DNA of 60,207 bases, filler included, from Dirinaria sp. TL-2023a (lineage: Eukaryota): the NCBI GenBank assembly GCA_051941275.1. It is 3 parts of 3 records of this genome, joined end to end, with 100 filler letters (N's around TTAATTAATTAA, not from the genome) between each part and the next. Parts side by side here need not be neighbours in the genome. Positions count along the whole stretch, not along the records: positions 40,218 to 60,207 come from JAVEBF010000305.1; 2 more parts are not named here. The stretch is one strand, 5' to 3'. The position numbers were made by a program, and so were the translations under genes. Below the pieces are notes generated by a model. The model worked only from the letters and a program-made list of their open reading frames with translations. It was not told where the DNA came from and made no database searches. Positions within the stretch are counted from its first letter, which is position 1. Each line of letters starts with the position of its first letter. Below are positions 20,020-60,207 of this stretch, piece by piece.

Positions 20020-20119
20020 NNNNNNNNNNNNNNNNNNNNNNNNNNNNNNNNNNNNNNNNNNNNTTAATTAATTAANNNNNNNNNNNNNNNNNNNNNNNNN
20101 NNNNNNNNNNNNNNNNNNN
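20020..20119. other. Artificial contig-joining linker (N44-TTAATTAATTAA-N44)
   Basis: Exactly 100 nt with a core giving stops in all six frames; identical to the linker at 40118-40217. Confidence 0.98.
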
Positions 20120-40117: not shown

Positions 40118-40217
40118 NNNNNNNNNNNNNNNNNNNNNNNNNNNNNNNNNNNNNNNNNNNNTTAATTAATTAANNNNNNNNNNNNNNNNNNNNNNNNNNN
40201 NNNNNNNNNNNNNNNNN
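40118..40217. other. Artificial contig-joining linker (N44-TTAATTAATTAA-N44)
   Basis: Identical 100-nt structure to the first linker. Confidence 0.98.
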
Positions 40218-40440
40218 ATTATGGCCATGTGCACAAGAAGAAAGTCCAACGCCAGTGGGTTGAAGTCTCTTCGAAATACTGTCGAGCGACTCAAATCTGA
40301 TATTGGCAGACTTGACGGATGCTTATCTGATGTTCAAGGTGAGTTCTTGACATTTACTTGAGAAATTAGCTTGACTGCTAACTTTCGTAGAAGAAATGGT
40401 GGACCGAATTTTCAAATTCGATAACAATGTGGATCATTGA
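40218..40440 (+). CDS. Short or 5'-truncated spliced coding fragment, coiled-coil-like
   Basis: ..LKSLRNTVERLKSDIGRLDGCLSDVQ, a canonical GTGAGT..GCTAAC..TAG intron (40339-40390), then in-frame EEMVDRIFKFDNNVDH*. Confidence 0.35.
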
Positions 40441-40498
40441 AAACGATAAAGAGACTCGATGTAGGACACGGGAGACGATTTCTCAGGAGGCCCAGACT

Positions 40499-41559
40499 TT
40501 ACCTCGAGGGTGCCAAATTTTTCAACGTCGATGCATCCACGAGGTAACCTTCGCCAATTTTGATTCCTTGAAACTGAACTTCAAAAAACCACTCTCGAAA
40601 AGCATTCTTCACGATCGCCTGATGCCAAACGCCTCCCAGTACAAGTGTCAGACGTTCCCAGGTAAGTCTCGATTTAGGGTGTCCAGTCCCATGCATGTGC
40701 AGATGAATGCTTCCTGAGTAATCAACAGCATTCACTATCGCTCCGGTTTGAGAACTGTCATGTGGCGCTGCTGCTGCTAGAGCTTCCAAAAAACTGCAAA
40801 ACATCTTGGTAATGGCGATCTCTTGGTCGTATATTTCATAATTGATTATCCACCTTTCGTCATCGGGATCGTGCATGTGCCCTGTTATTTTGTGTGAAAG
40901 GGGCTGCTCGTTGGTATCGTTGTTGCCATAGGTCAGCCAGCTGGTGGAACTTGTCATATTGGTGGTGTTGTCCGTAGATGTTGCGTCAGATCGGCCTCCT
41001 TGCTGCCACTTCATGAAGCCCAGTTGTCGATTGTTCAGAAACAGTCCAGCATAAAGCCTCGGAACTTTGTTGGGTAGTATGACCGGTTTTTGGGCGAGAG
41101 AAAAGCCCGCTACATATAAGGCGGCTATACAGTGTCGCAGCCGAAGTCCCCTTCTGGTCTCGGGCCATGGACTTATGACTATCTCTGCTGACAGTTGATG
41201 ACTGGCGAGTACAAGGCGCTTTTCCACGAGCGTTTCGTAGGGCGAATGTGCCAACGGTACCATCATCTCAAGTGCGTTGGTGAAAACTTGTTGAATATCC
41301 AGGGTTGGAGTCTGGTCGATCACAAGACGAGTTTCAAACCCGGGTATGATCGGCAAAGTTGAGACCTTATTGTGACTGAAGGGAACTTCTCAGTACAAAA
41401 AACAAACTTGATACCAGGGACTTGAGTGTTTTTTCACCTGGGCAGTAGAAGAATCGTGTTCTTTTTCATAATGTCATGCCGACGAACTGGGGTTGACGAA
41501 GAAAAGGTTTGTAACAAGTGATATATCAGAACTATAAAGACGCAGCTGAGTAATTTCAT
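40499..41559 (-). CDS. Secreted protein of unknown function (about 330 aa), 2 exons
   Basis: Signal-peptide-like MKLLSCVFIVLIYHLLQTFSSS. An intron at about 41377-41437 joins it in frame to the 285-aa ORF. The two halves both end in similar beta-strand motifs (LFLNNRQLGFM and VQFQGIKIGEGYL). Confidence 0.75.
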
Positions 41560-42149
41560 TGTGAAAGAAGAATATTCAATAGTTTGAGAAGATTTGCTAA
41601 TCCATATTGCAGAATCAGACGGGCGACGTGTCTTTACTATAAGCTCAGCGCATATCGCGAGCGCGAAGAACTCGAAATTTTGCAGTCCAAAAGCGGGAAG
41701 CACTCTTTGAACTAAGAATGAAACGAAGTACGTGCCGCTGATCTACAATCTTTGGTCTCGACAGACCCCTCTTGGTTCTCTGGCCACTATCTATCATGCC
41801 TTAGAACCAGTGTATTCACTGGTCTGGGTCTAAAACAGTGCGACATTCAAGCAGATACGTTGAAAGAAATGACGATCAACTGAATCACTTTGTAAGCGCC
41901 ATCATAAAATGGATAAACTGTTAAGTAGAAAAAACAGTGTAGTGGTCCAAGAAGTAGATGAAAGTAAAGCTGAGTTGGTAAGGTGACATGGCACACCCTT
42001 GTATGGGAACTAAGATAGTCTCGAGGTATCAGAACCCTGAATAGTCTGCCAACCTAGTCACTAAAATGCCATACCGCAACAAAAAGTGTCCAAATAACTG
42101 AAAATTCCCTGGCCCTGACATACACCTTGACCTCCGATACAGTACCCAC

Positions 42150-44350
42150 ACTTATTGTACCTTTTGTCTACGACACAGCTCCGCGATCTCGAAAACTCGA
42201 ATTATAAGCGATATTTCCAACACGCTTTCATTCCGTGAAAAAATATGAGACTTGGTAAGCTCCTCTGAGTGTTCCCAAGCTGTCACAACCCATCGGGTCA
42301 GTCGAAAAATCAATTGACTAACATGCTTGTCAACTATGATGTCTGCAAAGTGCTAAGATTATTATCAAGTCTATAAAAAGCTTTCGACATGAGGAAGGCC
42401 ATCAGAAATTCGAAATAGTTGTGCTGCGATAGACTTTATCAACCCTCGGCATGATTGTTATCGAATCTAATCTGTTTGCGAAAAGCAGCACTCTGGCAGT
42501 GATTAGCAATGATATAGGAAAGTGATCTAGCAAGTGACTTGAAGTCTTTCTCGCTCATTGAAGGCGTAGCAAAGAGTAATTATCTCACATCAAGCATTCC
42601 GCCAAGCATCTTGTTCAGTTCAATTCTATGCATCGTCAATCTGCACAGGGCATCTCATCACTGTCATAAAAGATTCCTATACGCCGTTGTGTAATGCGTT
42701 CTATAATACTCTTTGTACCGAGAAAATGCCATACGGCTAAGGAAGATATCCGTCTAAGGGGCTCCCTTCACCTTCGTCCGTGTTCAGCATGTCAGTGTTT
42801 CGATTCTCCGACTTGACTATCTTGGAGGCCGCCTTTCGCACTAAAACAACATTCGCGTCAGTACGGATGCATACCAGAATATCAAAAGATGGAGCAAGGT
42901 GTTGGAGAGATGAAGACTGAAGCTTAACGAGATGAGCTGTCAGTTGACTTAACCTCAAGCGCCTTCTGACTTTGTCGGTTTTCTCCCTCCTGCGCTGAGA
43001 ATTCGATGCGCGCCTGAAGCTTGGTTTTAATGGTATTCATATCTTCCTTGGGCCATTTTCTCCCCAAAGTATTTACGCCCCTTCCAGGTACTCGAGAGCA
43101 GGTATTCTGCTTGATCCGATCAGGTTGTTTCGAAACACTTGTGCTGCATAATCTAAGTTGGATTGATGCGTGGCCTCATTGATATGTATTCCGTCTTCTT
43201 CAGGTTCGATAGAATCGAAATATTGATTTTTCAAAGCGTCGATCACATACTTGATTGCATCGCGCTCAAACTCTGTGAGGGTCTCAGCCACTGATGTTTT
43301 CAGCAAAATAATGTCTGCTTCTAGAATGCTGTCTGGATCGTTTCAATTGCCATCTGCAATGAGCAGTCGAACATCATTATGCACTAGCTTGTTCGGTTCA
43401 CATAAAGTCGAACAAAGTGTCTAAGATGCGCATTGGATAAATGGAAGACACTGGCAGTCGAGCTTAGTGATCTCATGTCAATAGACTCGCGATCTTCATC
43501 TTTCTCTAACTTGAGGGATACGTTCATATCAGTTCATTAGACTAATTATGCGAGAACTACTTCTGGGTAAATGACACTCTTCAAACACTCGTTATCTGAT
43601 TCCTTCGCTTTTCGTTTGATGCCTGCCAGAAACCTGACTATGTAGTTGCGATAGATGGGGAGGAAGCGGAGTCGCTACGATTCTTGCGATTTCGTTCGAA
43701 GATCCAGAATCAAACTCCGATATATTTCGGTACTAGACGGTGGCGACTTGCGGAGAAGAATTTCGCTATGATATAGCTGCAGTGAGGTGCTGACGGCGAA
43801 AAATTTTGGCGTCGGTGGGATGAGTGATTGCACCAGCGAATTTTTCTCGGATGTTATTCAACATCGCTAATTGGACAACAGAATCAGTATCGCACAATCA
43901 AGCAGATAAAGGTATTTGAATGCTGTTGGGAATGAGCTGTTTTCAGAAAAAGGCTAGTGACACTGACATGTCGTTGGAACACTGAGATTACCCGCTTGGA
44001 AGTGCAATACAAGTAAATGTGGAGCATTCTTACAAGCAAACTCTCTCTCCATCTGCTGGTCTTGGCGTTATTTCCGACTTATTCAGATCTTTAAGTTCGC
44101 TAGTAAACTTATCCTCCAGCTACTAATCAGAGAAGGTACCTAGTTCTCGGAATTGCCCTCTTCCAGGTCAGTCTATACATCGGCTATGGTTGTCGCGTGC
44201 TCTTATTGATGATATTTCGCTTCCTCAATGATTCGAAACATCTGCTTTTGTGCTTCATGGAAGTCGGCGGATTGCGGATCACGTGGTGATTCATGCTGAA
44301 TAATGTAACCACTTTTTAGATGGTCTCAAGGATAGCAAGACTTCAAGATT
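42150..44350 (-). pseudogene. Degraded protein-coding relic of unknown family
   Basis: Protein-like minus-strand frames broken by many TAA/TAG stops, e.g. ADFHEAQKQMFRIIEEAKYHQ*EHATTIADV*TDLEEGNSEN* and LTEFERDAIKYVIDALKNQYF..LEYLEGA*. Boundaries are approximate. Confidence 0.5.
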
Positions 44351-45945
44351 GATTGAATTCGTCGGAAGGTATTGAATTTTGGCATGTACGATGGAGGAAT
44401 AGGAATTTGTGGCGCTTCAATCTCTCAAACGAAAGGTCATCGGCAGAAAACTCTCACAGAGATTCTGGGACAAAGAGAAATGGTTGACCTTTTGACCAGA
44501 TCGCTGTGTTGAAAAATGCGAGATACAGTTGTCGGAAGCAAGTCTACCTCACACTTAGTAGTAAGCTAGAGGAAAAAATGGGAAGGGGCAGTGCTTGTAG
44601 CCGAGGCAATTAAAGGATGACGTCATTCTTGCCTAATTATAGCGGGAACCCCTCGACCGCAGCTGAAAGCCTGAACAATCCACCCATACAGACATCTGAA
44701 TAGAGAATGCCTGCTTCAGCTCAAACTCTTTCGCGCGCCGATCTGACATTGCTCTAGTATGACCCGCCAAATTTGCTGCGGAGCTAATCTTGGAGCTCGG
44801 TATTCTGAGGAGCTTCTTGAGAAATTCGCTATGAGTCTTACAGGGAAAGACGGGAAACGTGAACGGGATGCTTCCTCGTCTTGCTGTCGATGTTGCAACA
44901 CAGTTAGGATCTTTGTGAGTGACAACGCGTGAGACATATCTTTCCGGACCTTAGAGCTACACGTGATTTAGGCTCGTCGTGAAACATGCACAGTAATCGT
45001 TCCTCAGGGTATGGACTTAAATCAAAGATGGCGATAAATGTCAATAGTGGAGCAGCGCAGAACCCTCGGCGGTAGGAGCCATGGTGTGGTTACGAAGCTT
45101 TGTGGGTGTGAGACGAAATGCTTTCAAACACAGCTTTTCGCTGCATTGGAGGTGGCAATTCAAGATGCGCGTAATCGCTCATACGGAAAAATCTCAAATG
45201 TCGAATGACGACTTCTGCTGGCGGATGGAAAGGCGGAAGTGTAGCCTCTAGAGAAAGAGATAGCTTGTGAAGTCTTGGATCGCGCAGACCTTCGAGTGAG
45301 AGGGCCTAAATCAAGGCGGCGGCAATGTGAGACTCGAAGGACAAGACTAGGCGAATCAGCCAACGAACGACTACTGTGTGGATGTTGCAATGGATATGGA
45401 AATAAACACAGAATTGGCTCTGTTTCCCGACCAGCTACCGATATTTTCCCATTGATCCTGTCGATTAATGGCGCTGTTAGGTTTTAGGATTTGACCACGG
45501 GCTGACTCATCTTCAGAGGTCTGGTATGATTTATGGTGCTCGTACTAGGCGTTTTAACATTCTCAGCGATTGGGCTCGACCGTATTTGTGTCTAGGCGAT
45601 CCTTCAATATGGTATTCGATCATCGGATCAACTCAACCGTCATCAAATTTGTTGAGGAGAGTATGCTGGATCGGGGTTACCGTCGGTCATAGAACTTTAC
45701 CTTGACCCGTGAGTCTTTTCTTCTTTCGTAGCCCAAGCCATCATGTAGTTAGCATTCATCATTCCTACAATTACCGCACATGATAAGCTTCTATCCGTGC
45801 ATTTCCTAACATCAACACTCATCATGTGATCCCCGCGCATGTCCGGTTGAAAATCAAATAAAGGCCCATTCGATAATATTCTCGGATTTTCTCCAGTAAT
45901 TTTCGTCCGCACAGATTTGATCTACGAAGACTCACTGATCACACA

Positions 45946-47136
45946 ATGGCCCGACGCCACGTCGGCAAAAAGTGTTATGATAATGCCAACCCGGCGAGTA
46001 GCGGAAAGTTCTCAGCGAAAAAGAAATGGACATTTGAAAAGAGTGCAGAACAAGACTTTTCACTCCGCCTAGGGAATCGTTTGAACAACTCGAACATGAA
46101 AACTGCCAGAAACAATGTCGGACAAATACCTTCTCGCCAGGTTTTTGAAGCGGCCGCGCCAATCTGCTCTCCGCCTGCATCGACAGGATTGGGATTCCTT
46201 GACCTGCCTGCAGAGATCCGCAATATGATCTATCGTAGCGTACTTCTGTTTAATGGTATTCAGCCTCTTATTCAGAACATCAGAACTCGCCCGAGAGAAT
46301 CTCATCGAGACTTCCATAGCTGCATGAAAATTTGCATGCTTTCACCTAGCGCGCTTGAAACCAAGTACAATGAATTCAATGCCACAGCTCACGGAGACTG
46401 TTTAGCAGTCCAGAAAGCATTTGCCTTAACATTCACTTGCAAACAAATCCGCAAGGAGGCACGCGAGATATTCTGGTCGGAGAATACATTCATCTTCGAT
46501 TCTTTGTCTCAGCGCAACGAATTTCTGCGCCATCTTGATCAGAAACGGAAAGATCTAATCATGAAGATTGGTGTGCGTCTTACGTCATGGGAGTATGCTT
46601 ATCACAACTTTCCTATAAGCTGTGAAGAGCTGCTCCATGAAGTGCTCCTTCCTGACTGTGCCTTGGGTCGCTTTGGTGATTATCCTGTATTATCACCCAA
46701 GGCTTATATATTGCGGGATTTGAAGGAGAAGTCCGCTATCGAGGCTGGTGGTACGGAGGAAATGTTTACCAGCAGCTCCGTACAAGTGAATCGCTGGCCT
46801 CGTACTCCTTATAGAAGAGACATATCATTACAACATAGGAATACTCACTCTCCAACCCGCGGGCCTGTTGGAAGTATCAAGCAGGGCAGTATCTTTGACA
46901 TGAGCGCTACGGGACCTTTGGCCGACTACAAAACCGACAGGAGAACCATGCTCGACGTTCTTGGCGACTGCATTCGATACGATAGAAAAGCAGACACCAG
47001 CGGGTGGAAATTCGCGATCGAGCGCCGCAAAAGAGATAGAGAAGACGTTCCCTGGCCGGGGTCTAACTGTCTGTACGATGTCAGCAAGCCGTACATGCTG
47101 TTATATCTTTGGACCGAAAGAGATCCGACAGTCTAA
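45946..47136 (+). CDS. Fungal F-box-like domain protein (LPxEIRxxIY family)
   Basis: GFLDLPAEIRNMIYRSVL followed by LTFTCKQIRKEAREIFWSENTFIF. Intact single exon of 396 aa. Confidence 0.75.
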   Translation: MARRHVGKKCYDNANPASSGKFSAKKKWTFEKSAEQDFSLRLGNRLNNSNMKTARNNVGQIPSRQVFEAAAPICSPPASTGLGFLDLPAEIRNMIYRSVLLFNGIQPLIQNIRTRPRESHRDFHSCMKICMLSPSALETKYNEFNATAHGDCLAVQKAFALTFTCKQIRKEAREIFWSENTFIFDSLSQRNEFLRHLDQKRKDLIMKIGVRLTSWEYAYHNFPISCEELLHEVLLPDCALGRFGDYPVLSPKAYILRDLKEKSAIEAGGTEEMFTSSSVQVNRWPRTPYRRDISLQHRNTHSPTRGPVGSIKQGSIFDMSATGPLADYKTDRRTMLDVLGDCIRYDRKADTSGWKFAIERRKRDREDVPWPGSNCLYDVSKPYMLLYLWTERDPTV

Positions 47137-47433
47137 TCAATAGCTGAGAATCCTTCCATGCGTATGATCGAATCATGTAGGGTTTTGGTGCAACGAAAAT
47201 ATATCTTTGTAGGTCGTTTGTTGTGCTTATTTAGCTTACTTGATAAGGGATCGATGAGTGAGAGAGTCTGAGTACCGCTCTTTCCATCGAACAAGGTAAG
47301 TAATCTTGATCAAGTTTACAAGATGCTCGACTTTCAGATTTTGACCACACACAGTATTTCTAAGTACCAACAGTCGATTGAACCTCTGTCTCTTGTATTC
47401 AGCTTTGATCTGGGCCTCTGCCGCTCAACAGCT

Positions 47434-48265
47434 TCAGATTTTTCTGAGAAGATGGCAACCGACGCTGAATGCACCAGGTAACGCCGAAAAGCCTCCGCCG
47501 AAGATCATGCTGAACCCGCCAAACATCTGAGCGTATAAGTAGCGACCTTCATCCCTTTCTATTAAAGTACTGGTCTCAGAGTGCCACAAAGACAACCAAG
47601 GCTCATTATTCTGGAAATCATTCCCATTTGTACGCCTAACCTCGGTGTATCCTTCTGAGCATTTGCCAATGCGGGAGGAAACATGCTTTGAATGCCAGCC
47701 CCAAAGAAGCCATAGACAACAGCAAAAGCCCGTCTACCTTTTAAGTATATCACGGAGGCCCAAGCATAATGAAGTATGCCGGAGGCAGCGACAGTAAGAA
47801 TAAAGGTGTTAAGAGGACCAAGAAAATGATCTGCGATCCATGTTGGTGCCACTCGTCCTGGCACTTTCATCGCGTTGATCACGAGTAACATATCAAACGA
47901 TGTTGAAGATCAAACGTGGATTGCATTTTGCGCGAACGAAGTGATCCCACTCTTGATGAGGGCCAAGGGACACTTGAATGATTGAGAGGCTCACATAAAG
48001 TTACTAAAGTACAGACTTACTAAAGCTAGTAGCACTCCTAACTCAGAAAAGCTGTACTAAGGATCTCTAAAGACTGCTAATTCAATCAAGAGACCAGTTC
48101 TCCGTAGAGAATTACAACTCTTCGCCAAGACCAAGACCATTGCAGTATTTGCCAGGACGATAAACCCCATCACTCTGAGTGTCCAGGCAAAGCCTGCAGG
48201 AGGAAAGAGCTGCCGTGCAGTTATTGTAAATACAACTCCGCCGGTTGCAGTGTCAGCCACGGCTG
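47434..48265 (-). pseudogene. MFS monocarboxylate-transporter-type (MCT/MCH-like) pseudogene, C-terminal portion only
   Basis: ATGGVVF..QLFPPAGFAWTLRVMGFI, GRVAPTWIADHFLGPLNT, YGFFGAGIQSMFP and RYLYAQMFGG. In-frame stops (FRDP*, IHV*), frameshifts and a lost intron acceptor; the N-terminal helices are missing. Confidence 0.85.
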
Positions 48266-49683
48266 TATGGTAATAGATAATGCTGCTGCTTGAACGTCAT
48301 GTGCAAGCGTCAAGTACACTTTTGAACCATGATAGAACTGGTTGGGTCAGGAAGTGTTTACCTGTGTGGAAGGACGGGACATACCTAGAGACCACCTGAG
48401 TTGCTGTCTCCAACGTTTATTACCACGGTCTTGAGCTTGAATGGCGTGGGCTCATCTTCTCGATTGGCGCCTGCGGACTTGTGGAACAACGATGCCGAAG
48501 AAGTACCGATAAGCGCGAGGATTAGAGGAAAGTAACAAGTGAGCTGCATAGCTCCGAATCATAGCAACGATGGGAATTGTAGATGTAGCTATTTATGGGG
48601 CTAGTTCAAGGGTTCGGGCTGCAGATGAGGTGCTGGAGTTCTAAGGGGGCATATTCAATTTTTGACTGCTGAGAATTGATGATGGGATTGGATGGACGGT
48701 AAGTAGTATTGGGAAAGAAGAAGGGGAAAAAAAGAGGAGCGGGAAAGAAGTACTCCATGTGAGGTGGGATTGCTCCTTCTGCAGGCGTCCAAGGGACCTG
48801 GGCAAAGTCGGGATACCGTCTGATAGTTGGCAAGAAGGCTCGCTCCATGGTGGGCATGTTGCCGTTTGAGGGAAAGAACAAAGCTACATCTTCAGCATCC
48901 GCAATGCTTGCTAGAATTCAATCAAAGTCAAGTACTTTACAACCTAACCCTCGGTTCGATGCGGCTCTATCGGCGTTCGCACATGAAATACAAACCATGT
49001 CAACATACCTCTTCCTACAAAAGAACTAAGCTTTATGAACATCCTTGCTCTATTGCTACCCGCGCCTGATAATGTTTGGGACACTTCCCAAAATGAGCGA
49101 TGCTTCAAAGGCAAGTGGTCGGCTCTTCCTTTGATGAGGGCATTGCTCTTGCACTATAACACTACAACTCAACCAGACCTCTGGCATCTGCATGATGAGC
49201 GGCTCCAAAATCCTCCTCGCATCATGTTCGCGATGAGACGACATGACTGCTTGATGCTGACGACGCCAAGACGGACTCAACATCTCGACGGGTTCTGGCG
49301 CAGGGTCCACAAGTACAAGGAGAACTTGAACTAGGGTTTCTAGCGTGCATTGATTTAAAGTAACTAAATTCTACGCGATCCCGATCTCGTCGTCTAATTA
49401 AACATAGAAATACAAAGCGTTTTGTTGGCCCCGACTCTGCGCTTGTCGGCCTTCTCCCTCACCAGACGAGATCGCCGACATAGTTCTGCAGTGTCTCGGG
49501 TCGATGGTCCCTTTCATCTTCTCGTCAGTATTGTGCATGTTCAGGTGCATGAGCCCTCAGTGTTGACGGAAACAACATGAAAAATCTCCCCCCTATGATC
49601 CGTCACGGACGATTCGAAATGAACATATATTGTGCATACCGACTGGCTAAGGAAATATTAGAAATTCTTCATCAAAGACGGAC

Positions 49684-51589
49684 TTACTTTCGAGATCGCT
49701 TCTTGGACCCGACCGTAGCAATCTTCTCCTTTCTAGCCCGTCCCTCCTTGCTGCCAACGGCTACAGCAGCTCTTCTACCCCAACCCTCGTCAATCCACTT
49801 AATTGGCCCTTTAGGCAAATCTTTATGAGGGGACTGCCAGTTCAGCATGCCCGATATCACTGGGTCAAGCATCGGCTGCATCCCATGGTAGGACTCAAAT
49901 TCACCACCGAACCTCTGCGGTATGTCGGCCATCTCGACATGCTGTTGCAACGTTGGCAACACTTCTTCTGGAGACAGGATGAAGAGTTTTTCAAAGGTGC
50001 CCGGGTCGACCCATTTCTTTATCCAGCCCCAGATGGTAGGGAAGTATGAGGGTGCACCTATGATCTGCGAGATTCCATGTCAGCGCTTACGAGGGATGTT
50101 AGGATGTGCAGGATCCTTACAAAAACACGGGACAGGATCTCCGGATAATTGGTCGCAAACATTTTGGCTAGGTCTTGTATCCAGCCTCGAAGACTCCAAA
50201 CTTGTTTGAGCGAAATACCAGAAATATCGACAATACATAAGGTTTTAGTAACCGCGCGCTCCTGGTTAGGTCGTCCCGGGACACTGGTACATAAGGGCAT
50301 GATGAACCTAGTCAGAAACTCGTAATAGGCAAAGGCCCGAACAGATGCCATTGGAACTGAATCTGGTATTTTCAGCTCAGACTTCAAAGCTTTCATGTCG
50401 CCGGAAGTTTTTGTGTGAGCCGCCACTATTTTCGAGTCAAGCTTTCCAAATTCGAACAAGCAAATAGGCTGGCCAGATTTGTCTCGTCGTCCACTCCAAA
50501 TAGGATACTACAAAGACGGCCAGTAAGCATCGAGCCTAGGAAGGGAGCTCTGTGGCCAGAAGCATTACCAAGTCCTTTGTCTCTTGGAACTCCGCGATCC
50601 CAAATTGCTCATAGAAGGTACCCAGATTCCTAGCCTCACGCGCATCCCAAGCTTCTTTGAACTGCTTATGAGCAGCAGAGACGTCGTGTTTCCGAGCATC
50701 AAAGAATCTTCTGTGCGGGCGTCAGACTTGAGACGGACGAGATACTTGTCATGTTAACAACCATGGAATCTTACCGAAGGGTGGCGTCATCATTGATACC
50801 GTCGGACACATCGTGCTCACCAATACCAGCAGGCCGCCGAAGAAGCCCTTCTCTCGAACAAATACTTTTCAACAAGCCAAAGTCCGCATCTTCTGCCTCA
50901 GATTGCGGATGAGAAAGTTTATTCTCTTCCTCGGTTGTTCTGCTCAAGGAAGTCGACGGAGTGGGAGCCGAGTCCTCCGTGTCTGTAGAAGTTGAAGTCT
51001 TAGCACGGGATACATTGCCGGCCGGCTTCGAAGCTGTTGGCGTGAGGTGACCGTGATTGGCCATGGAAGTTGAAGAACCGGGCACCATGGCTTCTCTGTC
51101 ACCCAAATTTGATTCTGGCCATGGATGTGGATATTGCTGATGAGGGGTTGGGGACATATGTGACCACTCTTCCCCAATCTTGGCCAAAGCAACGAGTAAA
51201 GGTACCAGCTCCTCTCCCAGCCGATATAGTTTTATTAGAATTGGGATGAGTTCGTCTGCCTTCTCTGCTGAAGATGTCTGTGTGGGTTGTCTCTGCTCTC
51301 CCATTAGCGTACTCTTGCTTTGGTGAGCTGATGAATCTCTTGCTGATGATTCTTTAGGCTCAGTCGAAGGAGCAGATGCTTCTGATCGTCTATGTTTGGA
51401 CTCTTTCAGCGTCGACTTCGATCCTGATGTTTCGCCCAGCTTCTCTTCAGAATGGAAAGGGGTCGTTGCTGCATCGAACCATTCCTCCTTCTTTGTGCCA
51501 AAATAATCCTTCCCAATCATGACTTTCTCGAACCGTTGTTCATCATTTGTGCGAGAAAAACGTTTCAGGTAGCGGCCTAGAAAGTCCAT
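49684..51589 (-). CDS. Sec14/CRAL-TRIO lipid-binding protein with a long N-terminal extension; 4 exons
   Basis: DDATLR|RFFDARKHDVSAAHKQF (CRAL_TRIO_N), YPIWSGRRDKSGQPICLF, CIVDISGISLKQ, ATNYPEILSRVF|IIGAPSYFPTIWGWIKKWVDPGT and IPQRFGGE. All three introns are canonical and keep frame; no stops. Confidence 0.92.
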
Positions 51590-52966
51590 TTGTTGGCTAC
51601 CATAAGAGATGGCAAGCCGTACAATTGGAAAGCAATGTCAATGTTTGGAAGTCTTTGCAAGGCAACGCAGGATTTACCAAACCACCGCGAAAGAAACAGA
51701 TCACAAGAAAGAATCGGATCACGGCACGGAGGACAGACGCTCTTCGAAAGGCTTACAACAGTTTTCACATGATTTACACATGTGATGTGGCCTTAACAAT
51801 CAGAATTTCGACCGTCATTTCAAGCCGGAGACCCCGCGTCCGTTCTCGCCGGCTGACAAAATGCATTGTGAGGCATTCCATGTGACTGGATAAGTCGATA
51901 ATGCAGGATGTTCACTCACCACCTGAAGCTGTCCTGCTCTATGAAGCTTTAATCGACGTCGATCGTTATGCGCCTCTTGCTGATCTCGGCTTTTCCGAAA
52001 GCATCTCGAAAGTGTCATAGTCGCAGAGGCTCCGCTTTGGACGAAGATCGAGATAGTCACGATGCACCAGAACCAAAAGAAGAGGTCTGCGAGGTGATTG
52101 GGGTGAGGCATCGGCTAAGCACTTGGCGGCGGCCAGTCGAAGTAATCCGCGCATGGATTAGAAGCATTGAATGTAACGTTGCCGACAATACTGGAGAAAC
52201 AGGGATTGCATCTTTTTGCACTTCGTCGAGCATACGGTTCAGGATGAGGGGGCTCTCAGTGATGTTCGCCGCATTCATAACATGGGGTTGCTCGCATTGG
52301 TCAATGGCAGACATGGCTCACCTTTGTCGGTGTTCCCGGGGAACCGGGCTGGCCGAGGCCGGCATACTCTGAGAGATATTCTGGCCCGTCCTACGGTGGT
52401 ACTCGAATCCCTGTCACCCCCACTCAACCCTGTGGTAAATCGACTCTAGTGTAGTGGAAAGTACCAAGCATCACGGGTGATCTGGGTTTTCCATTCGTTG
52501 ATGGTTCTACGGCGAACTTGGAAGGGGGCGACCCGGACATCCCGGCTCAAGCTTTGCGAGGAGAATTAGATGTATCGAGAAAAAATCCATGCGTCTGAGA
52601 TGTCACACTGCTTTACACCTTGGGCGATATTGCTTCTGCTCCGGCAGAGGTAAGTGTCTTACCCAACGACAAGCGAACCATATGCGGTGTTACGGCCCAA
52701 AAAGCATTACGCTTAGCTATTATCTAGCGCTACAGGTCACTGCTCGATCAGATTTACGATCACAATGTGGAGATTCTGTGCCAGCTTGGTTGAATGGAGA
52801 AGCCACGGAATGCAATTTCGTCACTGTGCAAAATCGTATATATTTTCTTCTGCTGGTTGCCCATCATCCAAATTGGAGAAGTCCTTCACCTGAGCTATTT
52901 GCCTGATTGAAAGTTATTTTGGGAACAGTGCCTCATCCTTGATTTTGCTTAAGTCATTGTCGAAGT

Positions 52967-54370
52967 ATGTCTGATCTGATCATGCTTGGTGTCGATTCAG
53001 AGACGTCCGCTCAGGGCGTTCTGTCCCAAAGGGCTCACGAAGTAGCCGGGGCGGACTTGCCTGCGGCTGTTGAAAAGCCTTTACCGGAATCGCCTCAGCA
53101 GAGTCCTCCGGTCACTCCAGAAGCTCTGACCCATGCAGACTCCAACGATGATATTCAGCCGAGCTCGCAAACATCTGTTACGGACCTCAATAACGAAGAG
53201 TTAGAAAGCAGCCAAAAGGCCTCGAAAACACCAGACGACCATGTTCAGGGATCCGAACCGCCCGCATCTGGAAACCAAGCCAGCAGTGAAAGGCACAAAG
53301 AGATCACGGAGAAATATTCTAGCCTTTGGACGGACAAAGAGGAACAAGTGCATTTTTCTCCAAGCATCGAGAATTGTTGTACTGAATAACGCATTAGATT
53401 ATCACTAAGCCATTCGACTACGTCAAAGCCCTTCCGGGCAAGCATTTCCGTGCTCAAATTCTTCTGGCATTTAATGTCTGGCTTCAGGTAGATAAGGAAT
53501 CGCTCGGCGTCATCGATAAAGCAATCGAAATGCTTCACAATGCGTCCCTTCTGTATTTTCACCCAGCTCTCAGGATTTTAAAAGACATTGAAGGCTGATG
53601 CTCGCAGTATCGACGATATCCAGGATAGTTCTGACCTCCGGCGCGGATCACCAGCAGCCCATCGCATTTTTGGAACCGCGCAGAGCATCAACGCGGCCAA
53701 CTATATGTGTTTTATGGCTCAGCAGGAGCTGCTCAAACTGCAAAAACCAGAGGTGTTGCAGATATATCTTGAAGAAATCCTCAATGCCCACCGCGGCCAA
53801 GGTATAGAACTCTTCTGGCGGGATACTTTGACTGTCCCTACCGAAGAGGAATACCTTCTCATGGTCTCTAATAAGACCGGCGGATTGTTCCGGCTTGCAG
53901 CGAGGTTGATGCAAGCTGTCAGCCCTACGACGTACAACATATTGCCCGTAGCTGAGTTGGTAGGCCTGATGTTCCAGGTCCGTGATGACCATCGGAGCTT
54001 GAGCTGTGAGAAGGTACGTGACTTGTTGCAAAACGTTCAATTGTAAAGCTTACAATTGACGAATCAGATGAGCTCCGCCAAAGGCTTTTGCGAGGATCTG
54101 ACGGAGGGAAAGTTCTCATTCCCCATCATCCACTCCATTCGCACCAGCACCTCGAGCAACAATGAGGTTCTCAATATACTCAAGCTTCGTACAACCAACA
54201 GCGATCTCAAAGCTCATGCGGTGCAACATATGCATGCCGAGACCAAGAGCTTTGAGTATACCAATAACCGGCTGGGGGATTTTCATAAAGCGGCTCGGGA
54301 CCTGTTGACAGGCTTTGAGCTACGCAACGAGCAGCTGGGAGCTTTAGTCAAAATGTTGAGCTTGGCATAA
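52967..54370 (+). CDS. Geranylgeranyl diphosphate synthase (fungal type III-like trans-IDS); 4 exons
   Basis: KPFDYVKALPGKHFR, LHNASLL|IDDIQDSSDLRRGSPAAH (FARM), HRGQGIELFWRD, NKTGGLFRL, FQVRDDHRSL (variant SARM) and FCEDLTEGKFSFPIIH. Confidence 0.93.
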
Positions 54371-55218
54371 GCTCGGTTCCCATTTTATCTGTTGATAGTC
54401 AAATGGCATATTCAGTGCATCATTGGATCATAGACACAAATTCTCCACAGATTGCGATCCTTGAACCATCAGCGGGGTTGAAATGTCCGTACGATCTCGA
54501 TGGTGACCACGGACCTCTGAGAAAAGAAAAATTGAAAAAAACAGACAGGGAGGAGTTACAGTGCATGATGTGCCTCAGTAGCTAGGATTATAGGCGATCT
54601 CGCAGGATGCGGCACATGTCGACTTTGGGATAGCATGTGCGCCTTAATGTGCAAATCGCCAAGACAATGGCTGCATATGAAAGAATCTCCCGCACATTCC
54701 CTGTCTTGTAAATCATCAGATTTGGAAACACGAGCATATCGAATTCATCGAACATAGCCGGAGATGGCCGAAGGCAGATCCTTGGGAATGGAGACTAGAA
54801 GAAAGCGTATTCAACGGAGGCTGGGGATCGGATAGAATTACCTCGTACGGTGAGGTGCTGATCTGATTTTGACTCGCCCTTCGTTGGACGATTAGAGGCC
54901 TTTCAGCAGAGTCTCCACTTGACCAGCTGCGCTGCAGGCTGCAGTCCTGTTACACCTCATCCTGGCGATGCAGAAGTCTAGGCTTTTAGGCTCTTGTTCA
55001 TATAGTGGAAAGCGCTTGCAAGGTTCGACGCCACCTGTGGAACCTGTGGATGTTGCGAAAGTCCGAGCTACTCCCTTCAGTCGGCCCTTCTGTCTACCCC
55101 AATATGGACTTGGCCCACAGTAGCACGGGAGTTTGTCTCAGAGTTGCAAATGATTAAGTTTCTATCCTCTGCAAGGTGAGCCATCCCGTGCATAGAGCAT
55201 TGAGCTAGTGCTGCTATC

Positions 55219-55825
55219 CTAAGCTGATCGCTGCTTGTTCCGAGTCAAGGTAGAGCTGACCAAAGCCAGACCATCACCAGTCACACTCATCTGGGTAGTA
55301 ACAATCGCCATGCTCCCGGCAACAATTCCCTTGCCACCACATCTGTCGTGCTCTTTGAAATAGGTGCTGGATACGTAATTATACAGCTGCAAGACTTTCG
55401 CGAATGGCAGGAACGCCAAGTTGGATGCCGTGTCTTTCATGGTACTCGTGATCTTGCCCACGTCCTCCGTGATGATGGGAAAGCTTCCTTCGGCCTTGTT
55501 AAGTCCGCCTTCTGCCAAGGAATCGAGTCTGATAGCGTAGGGTTGGACATATTCGTATGGTCCCGATGCGTACGGCACAGCTGGGGCGACGATGGACTCA
55601 TAACCTTGGTTGGCTAGTGAGACGAGCCTGCCTCCTAAGGGATTGGATTTGAATGTATCGATTCCGGTGGAGATAGCCGGTAGGGAGGTCAAATGCTGGA
55701 AGTTGCATCAATGACTTCTCTATCCGAGAAATGTTGCGAAGGGGACATACGTTCAGGGATTTGGAGGAGGTAACGTCTCGATCGTCGGTTGGGCCAGTCA
55801 TGGTCGATTTGCTTGCTTGAGGCAT
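55219..55825 (-). CDS. Perilipin-like lipid-droplet protein (CAP20/MPL1 family); intron 55696-55750
   Basis: SKSLN|HLTSLPAISTGIDTFKSNPLG, PYEYVQPYAIRLDSLAEGGLNKAEGSFPII and YVSSTYFKEHDRCGGKGIVA resemble the fungal CAP20/MPL1 pattern as I recall it (HLxSYPxVxDxIxxFKSNPYG..PYxYVxPYxxKADSLxxxxLxKxDxxFP). About 183 aa. Confidence 0.85.
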
Positions 55826-56797
55826 ATGCAATGGATGAATCGGTCTATGCCTGCGAGGGACAAGGATAGGTCTCGGGGTTCTCGTGTCTTGATAGAACGT
55901 CTGCTGGTCGCAACAATGGATGCGCTGTTAGAGCGAGGAGTGGTCTGGCGATTTAGTGCTAAAAGCAAAAGGGGAGCACCCTTTATCAGCCATTTTCCTT
56001 GATTCCCATCCGAAGACAGTCTTCACGGGCCGGTGGACGTAATTAGGCGCCCAAGCGAGAACCATCAAGCCCGTCCACGTAGATCACACAGCATACATCA
56101 TGTACGATATAGTGTAAAGAGGCTTATGCGGAGTGATCCTACGCTATGACGCTGTATGATCATGTCTACAGTTTATGATCGGCAAAGCCGAAGCGAGCGT
56201 GGAGCGCCCAACTTGCATATCCCAACTTTAACTGGACGACGTAGCATCAAGCTACGCCGTTACAAGCGTACTCCACAATTGGAGAAACATCCGTGATCTA
56301 GATCTCCATAATTGTGCGCTGTGAGGTCATGTGTGGTCCTCTGCACTAGTGCTGACCTGCGTAAAAACGTCCTTAGGCCAACTTCCTTCCTGTTCTGGCC
56401 TTTTTCACGGGGATTCCGTCTCATCTCGCAGCAAATGGCCATATTCTCTTGCGTATACTTTGTCTAAAGGCGGCACATCGATGATGGGTTCGAGTGACTC
56501 TCGAGCCGTCCCGATGAGTTACAGCTGTCTCCACAAGCCCGGAAATCTATGCCATTTGTAGTGTGTGGTAATAGCATCACGAAAATGATCAATCCCACAC
56601 GGCGGCATGGTGTGCTCTGCGGATACAGATTCCAGAAACGGTCGTCCTTCTCAGGATTCTAAAAGCTACAAGAGTCAATACTGTTCCGCCAAGGTCAATC
56701 TCAGTCATGCTCTTCTTCTCAGATCTCATTCGAATCCTTTCACTCCTGTTCTGGGTCGCCATTCTCTGTCAAAAGCTATCTGAAGTCATAAGCAAAA

Positions 56798-58230
56798 ATG
56801 GCTCCCAGCTTCAATCAAACCATCGTTGATGAGTCGACCTTCGACGGCGTTCACACGATTATCATTCATCTGAGTCTTCCCCGACCACAAGGCATCGCGG
56901 CATCTCAGACATCCATCCATGAATCCAATGATGTCCTTAAACCACATCAAGGGGTATCCGTTGCTGGAACCTGCAGGGACGAACCAGTGACGGAGTTTGG
57001 CAACGAGGATCCAACCATCGAGGTTGATGGGGAGAAACTAGTCACCAATCGACACACAAATGGCTATCCCCAGAAGGCCCTCTACACTCCTGATGATCAG
57101 CCCCCTCCCTCGCGCTTCCAGCCTCAATGTCACCCTCGAGCTGATGAAGTCTGCGCCGAGCTTGACGCCTTCTTTGCCACTTACTGGCCTTGGGAGAATG
57201 AGAAGGCTCGACAGAAATTTGTTGCCGCAGACACCAATCGATGGGCCTGCTGGTCATTTCCCTTGGTGAGAGATGACCGTATAGTCAACGCGGTTAAGGT
57301 GGATACATTGTTGTTCCTCCTTGACGGTAAGCTGTCATGAATCCCAGCCTCTTTCCTTGAATCGAGTTGTGATTAACCTGTAATTTCAGACATTGCCGAG
57401 AGTATGTCGTTCGAGGAGGGGAAACTTTTCTACCAGCGCCTCATCCTACTTGCCCAAGGCAAATTCCTACCCGACCGAGAGAATCCTTATGAGTGGATTA
57501 CTTACGACACGTTTGCGAGTATGCGCGCCGATGACGAGGCTTTGACCGCGATCGTGCTGCGAGAAGCAATGTTGTGTGTCAACGCGCAGGTAGATGAAGC
57601 CCGCAACCACGTTGTCGGCATGGGCTCTCTGCTCAAGCAAAGGTACAAGGAGGGTGGTATAAAGTACTTGTTCCCTTTCAATCAACACATACCTCTCCTT
57701 TTCTTCGTTTCATGGCGGAAGAACTATTCAGAGATTCTCAGATCGTCAAGCACCATCAAATAAAATACTGACACACTATTCACAGATTTGTTGCAGCCGT
57801 TTTGCGCTATGGTATGAACCTCCACATCAGTGAAGCCAACCTCGAGAGCCTCAAGGACATTGAGGAATCCTACTCTCGTCTTGGGATCGTTGTCAACGAT
57901 ATTCACTCCTTCGAGAAGGAAGTACGTGCATACGCAAAGCACAAGTCGGAAGGTGCGAAAGTCTTGAACATGGTCCAGATGCAGGCTCTCGAAACCGGAG
58001 TAAGTTACGCATGCGCTAAACGAGTCCTTTGGGTGCTGTGCCGCGAATGGGAGTTGCAGCATATCGATTTGATCGGGCAAAGGGAGACGCAGTTGAATTT
58101 GGAGGGGCAAGAGGGGAAAGGTGAGAAGAACGAGGATTTGAGAATCTATATGAAGGCTCTGGAGTATACTATCAGTGGGAACGAGAAGTGGAGCGAGTAT
58201 ACAAAAAGGTATTACGAAGACCTTGATTAG
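56798..58230 (+). CDS. Class I terpene cyclase, aristolochene-synthase family; 3 exons (introns about 57327-57389 and 57664-57785)
   Basis: PPPSRFQPQCHP, W..EKARQKFVAA, LFLLD|DIAE (DDxxE), MSFEEG, NDIHSFEKE (NSE/DTE), AKRVLWVLCREWE and LEYTISGNEKWSEYTKRY (WxxxxxRY); colinear with A. terreus aristolochene synthase as recalled. Confidence 0.95.
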
Positions 58231-58775
58231 TGACACGATGACCGGATGGTGTCTTTTTTGTGTAGGCTGCAGACTTGATAGATGCTAGAACGAGCTTATA
58301 GTCTTTACCGTCAACCCATGTGGACAAATGGAAGAAAAGTTCTCTCTGTTTTCGAACCTATTCCAAGTCTTTGTAACGTGGTTGTCGAGTGTTATCAAGG
58401 AGGATCAACTCAGCGACTATGTATCGCTATTTTTAGCGCGGGTATTATGGATCTTCCATGTCTTAGCAGAATGTGTTGCGAAGAACATTCTCGATTCAAT
58501 GTAGCGTCGATCATAGAAATCAATCTCGATCCACAATGGATATTTTTACAGTGCTCTATCACTGCGGATAAAAAACACCCGCTGCAGATAAAACTTAAAA
58601 CAGGAATTATTTTGCGATAAGATTTCGCGTATATCATATCACGCTACGCGGGAAATCTTCATGCGCTGCGAGTTTCTATTATAGACGCTCGCTAAGCACA
58701 TATTTCTTTTTGATTTTCGCTACGCTCACACACCCTCTTTCTGATGTCACACATTCTTCCCCCCATCCTTTCTAT

Positions 58776-59238
58776 TGTCACACTCTGTATAATCGACTAG
58801 TCAAGGGTTATAATGCTTACTAGTTTACCTGGGTCAAAAGATCACAGTAATTATTGCAACTGCATTTTCATTGGAATAATATTACTATTATCACCTAACA
58901 TACTATAATTTGACACACGTGCGAAGGATCTCTCTCTCTCAGACATCGTATGACAATTATCTCTTTTTTAGAAATCACGTTCACGAGACTAGTGGAAAGT
59001 TTTGTCTCAGAGTCATTGACGATTTTTCTAACTAATAATGTATAAAACAAATTCTTAAAAATACATCTTGTGAGCTGTAATGACTCAAACATCTCGAGAT
59101 GTCGAACTCTGTCAAATATTTAATTTTAATCAGATAGATTTCTTATGATAGAAATCTCGACAGCGTCAAAAGATTAACTAAATCAAATCAGCGATTTGAC
59201 TTTTATCTTACTACTTAGTGATTTTTAAAGTCGTAACA
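58776..59238. mobile_element. AT-rich, RIP-like degraded repeat; probable LTR relic
   Basis: Starts TGTCACA and ends CGTAACA (imperfect terminal inverted repeat); about 460 bp, AT/TpA-rich, no credible ORF. Confidence 0.45.
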
Positions 59239-59717
59239 TGTCGCGACCCTAAGCTGTGACATACCTTTATGCGGTAGCCTGAGGAACAGGGACGCACCAT
59301 GATCAAGGAGGCGCATCTTCTTGACGCTTGGACTTGATGATCACGTGATCAGTTCAAGTAGTCCAAGAGGACCTGATGCTTAGACATCTTGATCAGTCCA
59401 AGTAGTCCAAGGGGACCTGATGCTTGAACATCTTGATCAGTCCAAGTAGTTCAAGGGGACCTGGTGCTTGGACATCTTGAACACTTAGCGCAGGAGGACT
59501 ACTATATAGATCTCCAACACGACGCCCTTCTGGCATCGTGTTCAATCTCAGTTAACTTGTCTACTACTGTTACAAGTACTAAGTACCTACCTTGTGTGAT
59601 ACTTGCCCTATCACGTTGACACCCGTTGCTCCTGGACTGGACCTCTCCAACAGACCAAACCCTAGCATCTCTTATTAGATACCTGGAAACCTAGGTTGAT
59701 AGTAGAAGACGCAACAG
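59239..59717 (+). mobile_element. Retrotransposon LTR, probably solo
   Basis: TGTCGCG...CGCAACA termini (6/7 inverted match), 479 bp, with an internal tandem array followed by a TATA-like CTATATAGA at about 59502. No matching TSD seen. Confidence 0.65.
59346..59477. repeat. Three tandem copies of a 44-bp unit inside the LTR
   Basis: Units start at 59346, 59390 and 59434; consensus TGATCAGTCCAAGTAGTCCAAGGGGACCTGATGCTTGGACATCT. Confidence 0.92.
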
Positions 59718-60207
59718 TTATCTAAAGGGGTAAAAAATAAAATCTACATTCGCTGCACACGAGAACACAAGTCGGACTTCAATGTTCATGCATTTTGTTA
59801 GGACCGGTGCAGAGCAAGTCAATGCAGGTATAGTTAACTAAGATATTATCACTAGGGAAAGAAGAAGGAAAGCTAGATACAATAGGAGGCCCCAGGTTTA
59901 TATGTGCGGGTGTCGGGTAAACACCCCGATCGGGTTAGCGCATAACCCCTGAGAACCATGGGAGGTGTTGCCCCAGGTAGTATACCAGGTGCATGCTCGT
60001 AACACGTCTCTCATCTTTTTCATTTTTCTTCACTCTTTTACACAGCGCAATGCTGCATCGCGTTTCACTCGATACTTCTTTATAAGATAGAAAACAGCAT
60101 CGTCGTCGTTGAGAACTCAATGTTTCAATTGATCGACATTGTTTATGATTTCGAGAGTGAGAATCTGATCTGCTCTCGAAGAAGTCTCTATCGAATCATC
60201 TGACAAC

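Follow-up and report, generated by a model that had tools for sequence, protein, structure and literature searches.

The terpene cyclase reported here shares its fold and its DDxxE and NSE motifs with the aristolochene synthases (AS) of A. terreus (PDB 2OA6 and 4KUX) and P. roqueforti (1DI1). ATR13, encoded in the Stachybotrys atranone cluster, is putatively AS-like too. In the available text of two reports it is likewise a stand-alone protein with a DDXXE motif and a proposed GGPP cyclase (PMC4117958, PMC12612007). Separate fungal GGPP cyclases have also been described in the vinigrol (VigB) and phomactin (PhmA) pathways and as TriDTC; the available text calls their motifs non-canonical, and it is by these descriptions that we set them apart from our cyclase (PMC12703729, PMC12370890). 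The word "aristolochene" is absent from the main texts of both papers. In fusicoccadiene and variediene synthases, GGPP supply and cyclase are coupled as well, but within a single polypeptide. For lichen fungi, the available text of a genome survey states that, of the 724 terpene clusters it covered, none fell in a group with a characterised one, and suggests triterpenes as products (PMC11457338); aristolochene, GGPP and CRAL do not occur in its main text, and its supplements may list the cluster. Our literature search, which covered main texts only and was mostly without subscription journals, returned nothing on the clade described below or on any terpene cluster that includes Sec14 and perilipin-like genes.

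Gene content of the locus

The window, that is, the whole stretch of DNA analysed here, comprises 60,207 nucleotides, filler included, from Dirinaria sp. TL-2023a, a member of a lichen-forming Lecanoromycete genus. Stretches of artificial N filler containing a brief AT motif were found at 20020-20119 and 40118-40217, showing that the window consists of contigs joined by spacers; genes to the left of 40218 therefore need not neighbour the cyclase. The contig of interest (JAVEBF010000305.1, C305) covers 40218-60207. Contig C306 was considered as its downstream neighbour and dropped, since nothing places C306 after C305. The contig carries the following genes in this order:

49684..51589, minus strand: CRAL-TRIO/Sec14 lipid-transfer protein, 574 aa, 4 exons; PF00650
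52982..54370, plus strand: type III GGPP-synthase-like prenyltransferase (GGPPS), 409 aa, 4 exons; Pfam PF00348
55219..55801, minus strand: perilipin/CAP20-like small protein, 175 aa, 2 exons; weak PF03036 match
56798..58230, plus strand: AS-like class I terpene cyclase, 415 aa, 3 exons; from sequence, profile and structure comparison

An initial annotation of this DNA had noted a GGPPS co-located with the cyclase, and this gene indeed lies on the cyclase contig, 2.4 kb upstream; the CRAL-TRIO/Sec14 and perilipin/CAP20-like genes are two cluster genes beyond that annotation. A tblastn search with one P450 query found no P450 on the window contig or in the related metagenome loci L008, L009, L011 and L014 (described below), and a haem-motif pattern gave a single match in L011/L014, without tblastn support. 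Close to the contig end, three tandem 44-nt repeats (88-92% identical) lie in AT-rich DNA at 59346-59483 and are possibly a transposon remnant.

The cyclase exons (56798-57326, 57390-57663 and 57786-58230, plus strand) contain no internal stop and are separated by GT-AG introns of 63 and 122 nt. This splice model was backed by the relative P0001 (415 aa), which is 93% identical; the database's own call, P0144, has 417 aa and differs at the second splice donor. Between window and P0001, 301 of 321 catalytic-domain residues and 47 of 64 linker residues were shared, the better preservation of the catalytic domain being expected under selection.

The Sec14 gene (minus strand; exons 51589-50775, 50710-50569, 50507-50121 and 50064-49684) gave two PF00650 matches (E 4e-8 and 9e-10; 33.6 and 38.9 bits), both above the cut-off of 22.6, and has a paralog elsewhere in the genome with 53% identity. 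Its long N-terminal extension includes an amphipathic stretch at residues ~111-138 (window ~51170-51260, minus strand; moment ~0.5), which is conserved in L009 within unconserved sequence and could possibly serve as a membrane or droplet anchor.

The perilipin-like gene (minus strand; exons 55801-55751 and 55695-55219) is divergent from the cyclase. It is conserved as a gene, with a weak family match: PF03036 scored E 0.0056 and 16.2 bits, under the cut-off of 33, and the Atlas neighbours, Cap20 (score 0.93, low recognition value), REF and perilipin clusters, were weak. No second match to the gene was found in the genome; a PF17316 search of the genome gave no match, and the control sequences were likewise unmatched. 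In Polycauliona, a perilipin-like N-terminus is joined to the cyclase in one predicted protein (P0012; 33% to the window gene, E 3e-26), most likely a merged call of neighbouring genes. The long N-termini of the sister proteins P0242, P0266, P0282 and P0285 were considered as perilipin fusions and rejected, having no Pfam match.

Active site of the cyclase

P0001 aligned with A. terreus AS (PDB 2e4o) at E 5.5e-73, and its predicted structure (mean pLDDT 80) superimposed on AS structures with a TM score of 0.95 on the target, an rmsd of ~2 Å and ~40% identity, the next-best folds following at E 1e-10 or weaker. The PF19086 domain, Asp-rich and NSE/DTE motifs, sensor Arg and RY pair of class I terpene cyclases were all found, P0144 matching PF19086 at E 5e-14; an NCBIfam search gave no family information beyond Pfam. 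These results demonstrated that the cyclase is AS-like by descent, with AS as its closest relatives in both sequence and structure. The N-terminal extension of ~95 aa is predicted to form a beta-hairpin followed by a disordered linker. The hairpin segment (residues 6-26, within a conserved segment at window 56798-56890) was also present in P0002, P0003, P0007 and L009.

As the initial annotation had reported, the metal-binding motifs were intact: DDIAE lies at residues 176-180, its codons straddling intron 1, NDIHSFEKE at 305-313 and RY at 409-410 of the 415-aa model. All diphosphate- and metal-binding residues were retained (D176/D177/E180, N305/S309/E313, R261, K312 and R409/Y410).

The same annotation had claimed, from A. 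terreus segments, that the pocket differs from that of AS, and had called for a proper alignment. The alignment of P0001 with 2e4o, which has no gaps across these segments, showed that these segments were right and that the pocket residues in question are not conserved. The differing segments lie at residues 145-155, 236-243 and 261-266; the claimed change of Tyr to Ser corresponds to Y67 and S153, the change of Phe to Met/Cys to F151 and M237 and to F153 and C239, and in the effector region RERDVG aligns to RYKEGG. Further pocket changes were L83D, V179G and L215G, and the window agreed with P0001 at 32 of 32 tabulated positions.

In P. roqueforti AS, the available text of PMC10992375 gives Y92, L108, L111, F112, F178, G205 and W334 as pocket or templating residues, with Y92, L108 and F178 templating FPP folding. 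These were transferred to A. terreus numbering with an offset of 25-26, in agreement with the review's Arg/Lys/Tyr pairs. Three of the seven were changed, and they were the three templating residues: Y92 (Y67 in A. terreus) is S153, L108 (L83) is D169 and F178 (F153) is C239. L111, F112, G205 and W334 were kept as L172, F173, G266 and W403. Judged by its templating residues, the cyclase does not qualify as an aristolochene synthase. An ordinary aristolochene or eremophilane synthase would fit the 40% identity, the shared fold and the label of P0008, but with the folding Tyr and the cation-stabilising Phe among the changed residues, and with two canonical AS paralogs elsewhere in the genome, this reading is barely credible.

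Five more positions, which we take to be pocket-lining, are V63, V179, L183, L184 and L215, replaced by W149, G265, F269, V270 and G301, respectively. Summed side-chain volume, calculated from residue values as a proxy and not as a cavity measurement, fell by 242 Å^3 over the seven literature positions and by 344 Å^3 over 12 positions including these five. In random draws of hydrophobic aligned positions, run against three canonical stand-ins, a loss of 242 Å^3 was reached in 0.7-1.8%, and the two losses, 242 and 344 Å^3, spanned 0.3-1.8% of 20,000 trials, a reduction beyond chance expectation. Five canonical AS-like controls showed a net volume change of zero. Equal losses were seen in unrelated, uncharacterised AS-like proteins: P0191 (-305 Å^3), P0178 (-312 Å^3), P0283 (-340 Å^3), P0255 (-359 Å^3) and P0312 (-472 Å^3). 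The substitutions also introduced two Trp residues, of which W149 is conserved in 21 of 23 members of the clade described below and W152 is variable.

The cyclase could still be an FPP enzyme that makes an acyclic or simple sesquiterpene of the farnesene, nerolidol or germacrene type, the GGPPS being linked for another reason. Every close solved relative is an FPP enzyme, W149 and F269 add bulk to the pocket, and the replaced residues are those that template FPP folding in P. roqueforti AS, where mutants of Y92, L108 and F178 give linear farnesenes. We consider this reading unlikely, as it leaves the linkage reported in the next section unexplained.

The pocket also bears on whether GGPP would be cyclised at all. 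With two cation-guiding aromatics gone and a polar residue now in the pocket, and with neighbours that handle lipids and no tailoring genes, the enzyme might release an acyclic C20 alcohol or olefin of the geranyllinalool or geranylgeraniol type, which would serve as a lipid for storage or membranes. However, the equivalents of F87, W308 and N305 are kept and 21 of 23 sequences share the new Trp, which suggests a selected template, and a polar pocket need not mean polar products, according to the available text of PMC10563020. We regard an uncyclised product as clearly improbable.

Conservation and linkage to a GGPPS clade

The relative search returned 21 proteins, including 14 from named lichen fungi and 3 from Xylariaceae. 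A profile run against representatives at 50% identity gave the two from the clade E 1e-165 and 1e-144; canonical AS-labelled proteins followed from E 1e-86. A quick tree of 67 rows, with representatives under 285 aa left out, placed 23 rows in one clade (SH-aLRT 94) among AS-like proteins; its sister group was not resolved. The named members are all lichen fungi and span Caliciales, Lecanorales, Teloschistales and Baeomycetales (one name checked for each), and one database relative, P0008, is labelled aristolochene synthase. The pocket changes proved to be clade-wide: the Y67 position was non-aromatic in 23/23, F153 was Cys in 22/23, D178 was Glu in 22/23, V63 was Trp in 21/23, L215 was Gly in 17/23 and L83 was Asn or Asp in 15/23. 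At the L83 position, this lineage has Asp and most of the clade Asn. A derived Teloschistales subclade (P0004, P0010, P0015, P0016, P0017, P0161 and P0162) has lost the pocket Asn and partly refilled the pocket, and a second change of substrate or product is possible there.

The two canonical AS paralogs of the genome (on contigs C830 and C173) have kept the aromatic segments, and no GGPPS was found within the 10 kb examined around them. One lies between SDR and FAD-oxidase genes and the other beside a P450 gene and a transposase-like frame; the 3' end of the latter paralog appears frameshifted or spliced.

Linkage of cyclase and GGPPS was scored from locus tags and same-sized contigs, comparing the cyclase matches with the best 120 of 419 GGPPS matches; 21 named relatives were counted, and the second entries P0148 and P0160 and the partial P0173 were left out. 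Among these best 120 of 419 matches, a GGPPS was found alongside the cyclase in at least 7 of 21 relatives, being 1-2 locus tags off on a same-sized contig in Ikaeria, two cf. Caloplaca, Gallowayella and Blastenia, and on a same-sized contig in Usnea florida and Alectoria sarmentosa. The remaining 14 of 21 had no GGPPS neighbour among the best 120 of 419, and the three genomes of P0016, P0018 and P0162 carry a clade-type GGPPS on a different contig. Within the same 120 matches, the derived Teloschistales subclade had a GGPPS neighbour in 0 of 7, as would suit the FPP reading.

A metagenome scan reduced 76 pattern matches to 7 loci representing only two lineages, with GGPPS in 6 of 7, Sec14 in 6 of 7 and the perilipin-like gene in 3 of 7. 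Of these contigs, the seventh stops 2.4 kb upstream. Loci L008-L010 keep the gene order of the window. In L011-L014 the GGPPS is inverted and the perilipin-like gene was absent, also in a profile search. In the L008-L010 lineage, the cyclase is directly followed by an epoxide hydrolase gene (L009:11414-12877), which was not beside the cyclase in the window or L011.

The window GGPPS (plus strand; exons 52982-53347, 53398-53552, 53608-54013 and 54068-54370) is identical to P0024. Small residues, S172 and A171, precede the first DDxxD at -4/-5, as in type III GGPP synthases, and the protein matched GGPPSs at E 1e-94 to 2e-75 and sesterterpene-synthase domains at E 2e-61 or weaker. The first motif and the closest structural relatives mark the enzyme as a type III GGPPS, with GGPP as its presumed product. 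A FastTree analysis of 48 GGPPSs (45 chosen from the best 120 of 419 matches, and three others) placed 8 of 8 cluster-linked GGPPSs in a single lichen clade of 26 rows (support 93), with the genome's other GGPPS outside it. A third GGPPS-like gene, on contig C116, has a degenerate RRG motif and is possibly broken. The linkage counts and the tree showed that linkage of the cyclase to a dedicated GGPPS clade is conserved across three fungal orders and two metagenome lineages.

The window copy itself sits on a long branch (0.78 in the tree) and carries three rare changes: C208 at the yeast Tyr107 position (1 of 117 scored), A234 before His235 (1 of 119 scored) and, in the second motif (DDHRS), Ser in place of Asn (1 of 120). 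The chain-length floor (C208/F209/H235) was mapped by spacing rather than from an alignment, and Phe209 and His235 are kept. In yeast GGPPS, Tyr107, Phe108 and His139 limit chain length and Ala mutants elongate, according to the available text of PMC9729869. With its three rare changes the enzyme may be altered or decaying, or may make longer chains in this lineage; taken with the cyclase Asp, a co-change of chain length, or decay, is possible. Should the prenyltransferase produce GFPP, if only in this lineage, the cyclase would be a stand-alone sesterterpene synthase, as the Cys at the Tyr107 position and the Ala before His235 would allow, and sesterterpenoids have been obtained from lichens, as stated in the available text of PMC6151673. 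Against such a C25 route, the 7 other cluster-linked GGPPSs retain Tyr, so that the clade norm is GGPP, Phe209 and His235 persist, and the best structural relatives of the prenyltransferase are GGPPSs. We judge the C25 route improbable.

Proposed pathway and comparison with known systems

The initial annotation had proposed a switch to GGPP on an AS scaffold. The clade-wide pocket changes and the conserved GGPPS linkage speak for this proposal; its argument from pocket size is weakened by the equal volume losses of unrelated AS-like proteins. Taking the apparently roomier pocket together with the adjoining GGPPS and lipid-handling genes, the product is probably a diterpene, and since no P450 lies nearby it probably stays hydrophobic. 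From the gene families and residues at hand, we consider it reasonably probable that the cyclase uses GGPP to form a cyclic diterpene and that the lipid proteins handle this product in its unoxidised form.

In such a pathway, the GGPPS, whose family is clear, would supply GGPP, and the cyclase, with its catalytic residues in place, would ionise it by the standard three-Mg2+ machinery. The AS pocket would have been emptied by Y67S, L83D/N, F153C, V179G and L215G, with W149 and F269 as new walls, and could admit a fourth isoprene unit, the chain then closing to a cyclic diterpene hydrocarbon or alcohol. More speculatively, Asp or Asn at the L83 position might place a water or act as a base and so favour an alcohol. 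Going by their gene families, Sec14 would carry the product and the perilipin-like protein would coat the droplets on which it is stored. A wider reading, which we put forward tentatively and with some doubt, is that the cluster is old among Lecanoromycetes, that its AS scaffold was rebuilt for C20 (possibly C25 here) and that a dedicated Sec14 carrier and perilipin-like coat replaced tailoring oxidases, sending an undescribed terpene into lipid droplets.

The locus is a compact conserved cluster pointing to a C20 product, and it can be tested heterologously. If our reading is true, it would offer a natural C15-to-C20 substrate switch on a well-studied cyclase scaffold with few responsible residues, and a fungal cluster that encodes lipid-transfer and droplet proteins for its own product.

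Compared with AS, the cyclase has in common R175/K226/R314/Y315, F87, G180 and W308 (A. terreus numbering), and it differs in Y67S, L83D, F153C, D178E, V179G, L183F, L215G, V63W and the N-terminal extension of ~95 aa. Its neighbours are GGPPS, Sec14 and perilipin-like genes, whereas the canonical AS paralogs of the same genome lie beside P450 or SDR genes. No ATR13-labelled protein was among the named cyclase matches; ATR13 differs, in the available text, in that its dolabellane cyclase role is predicted only and its gene lies beside P450s and a PKS (PMC4117958, PMC12612007). To the chimeric prenyltransferase-cyclases, such as fusicoccadiene and variediene synthases, the cyclase showed remote similarity (E ~1e-6). 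Stand-alone fungal diterpene cyclases are already known.
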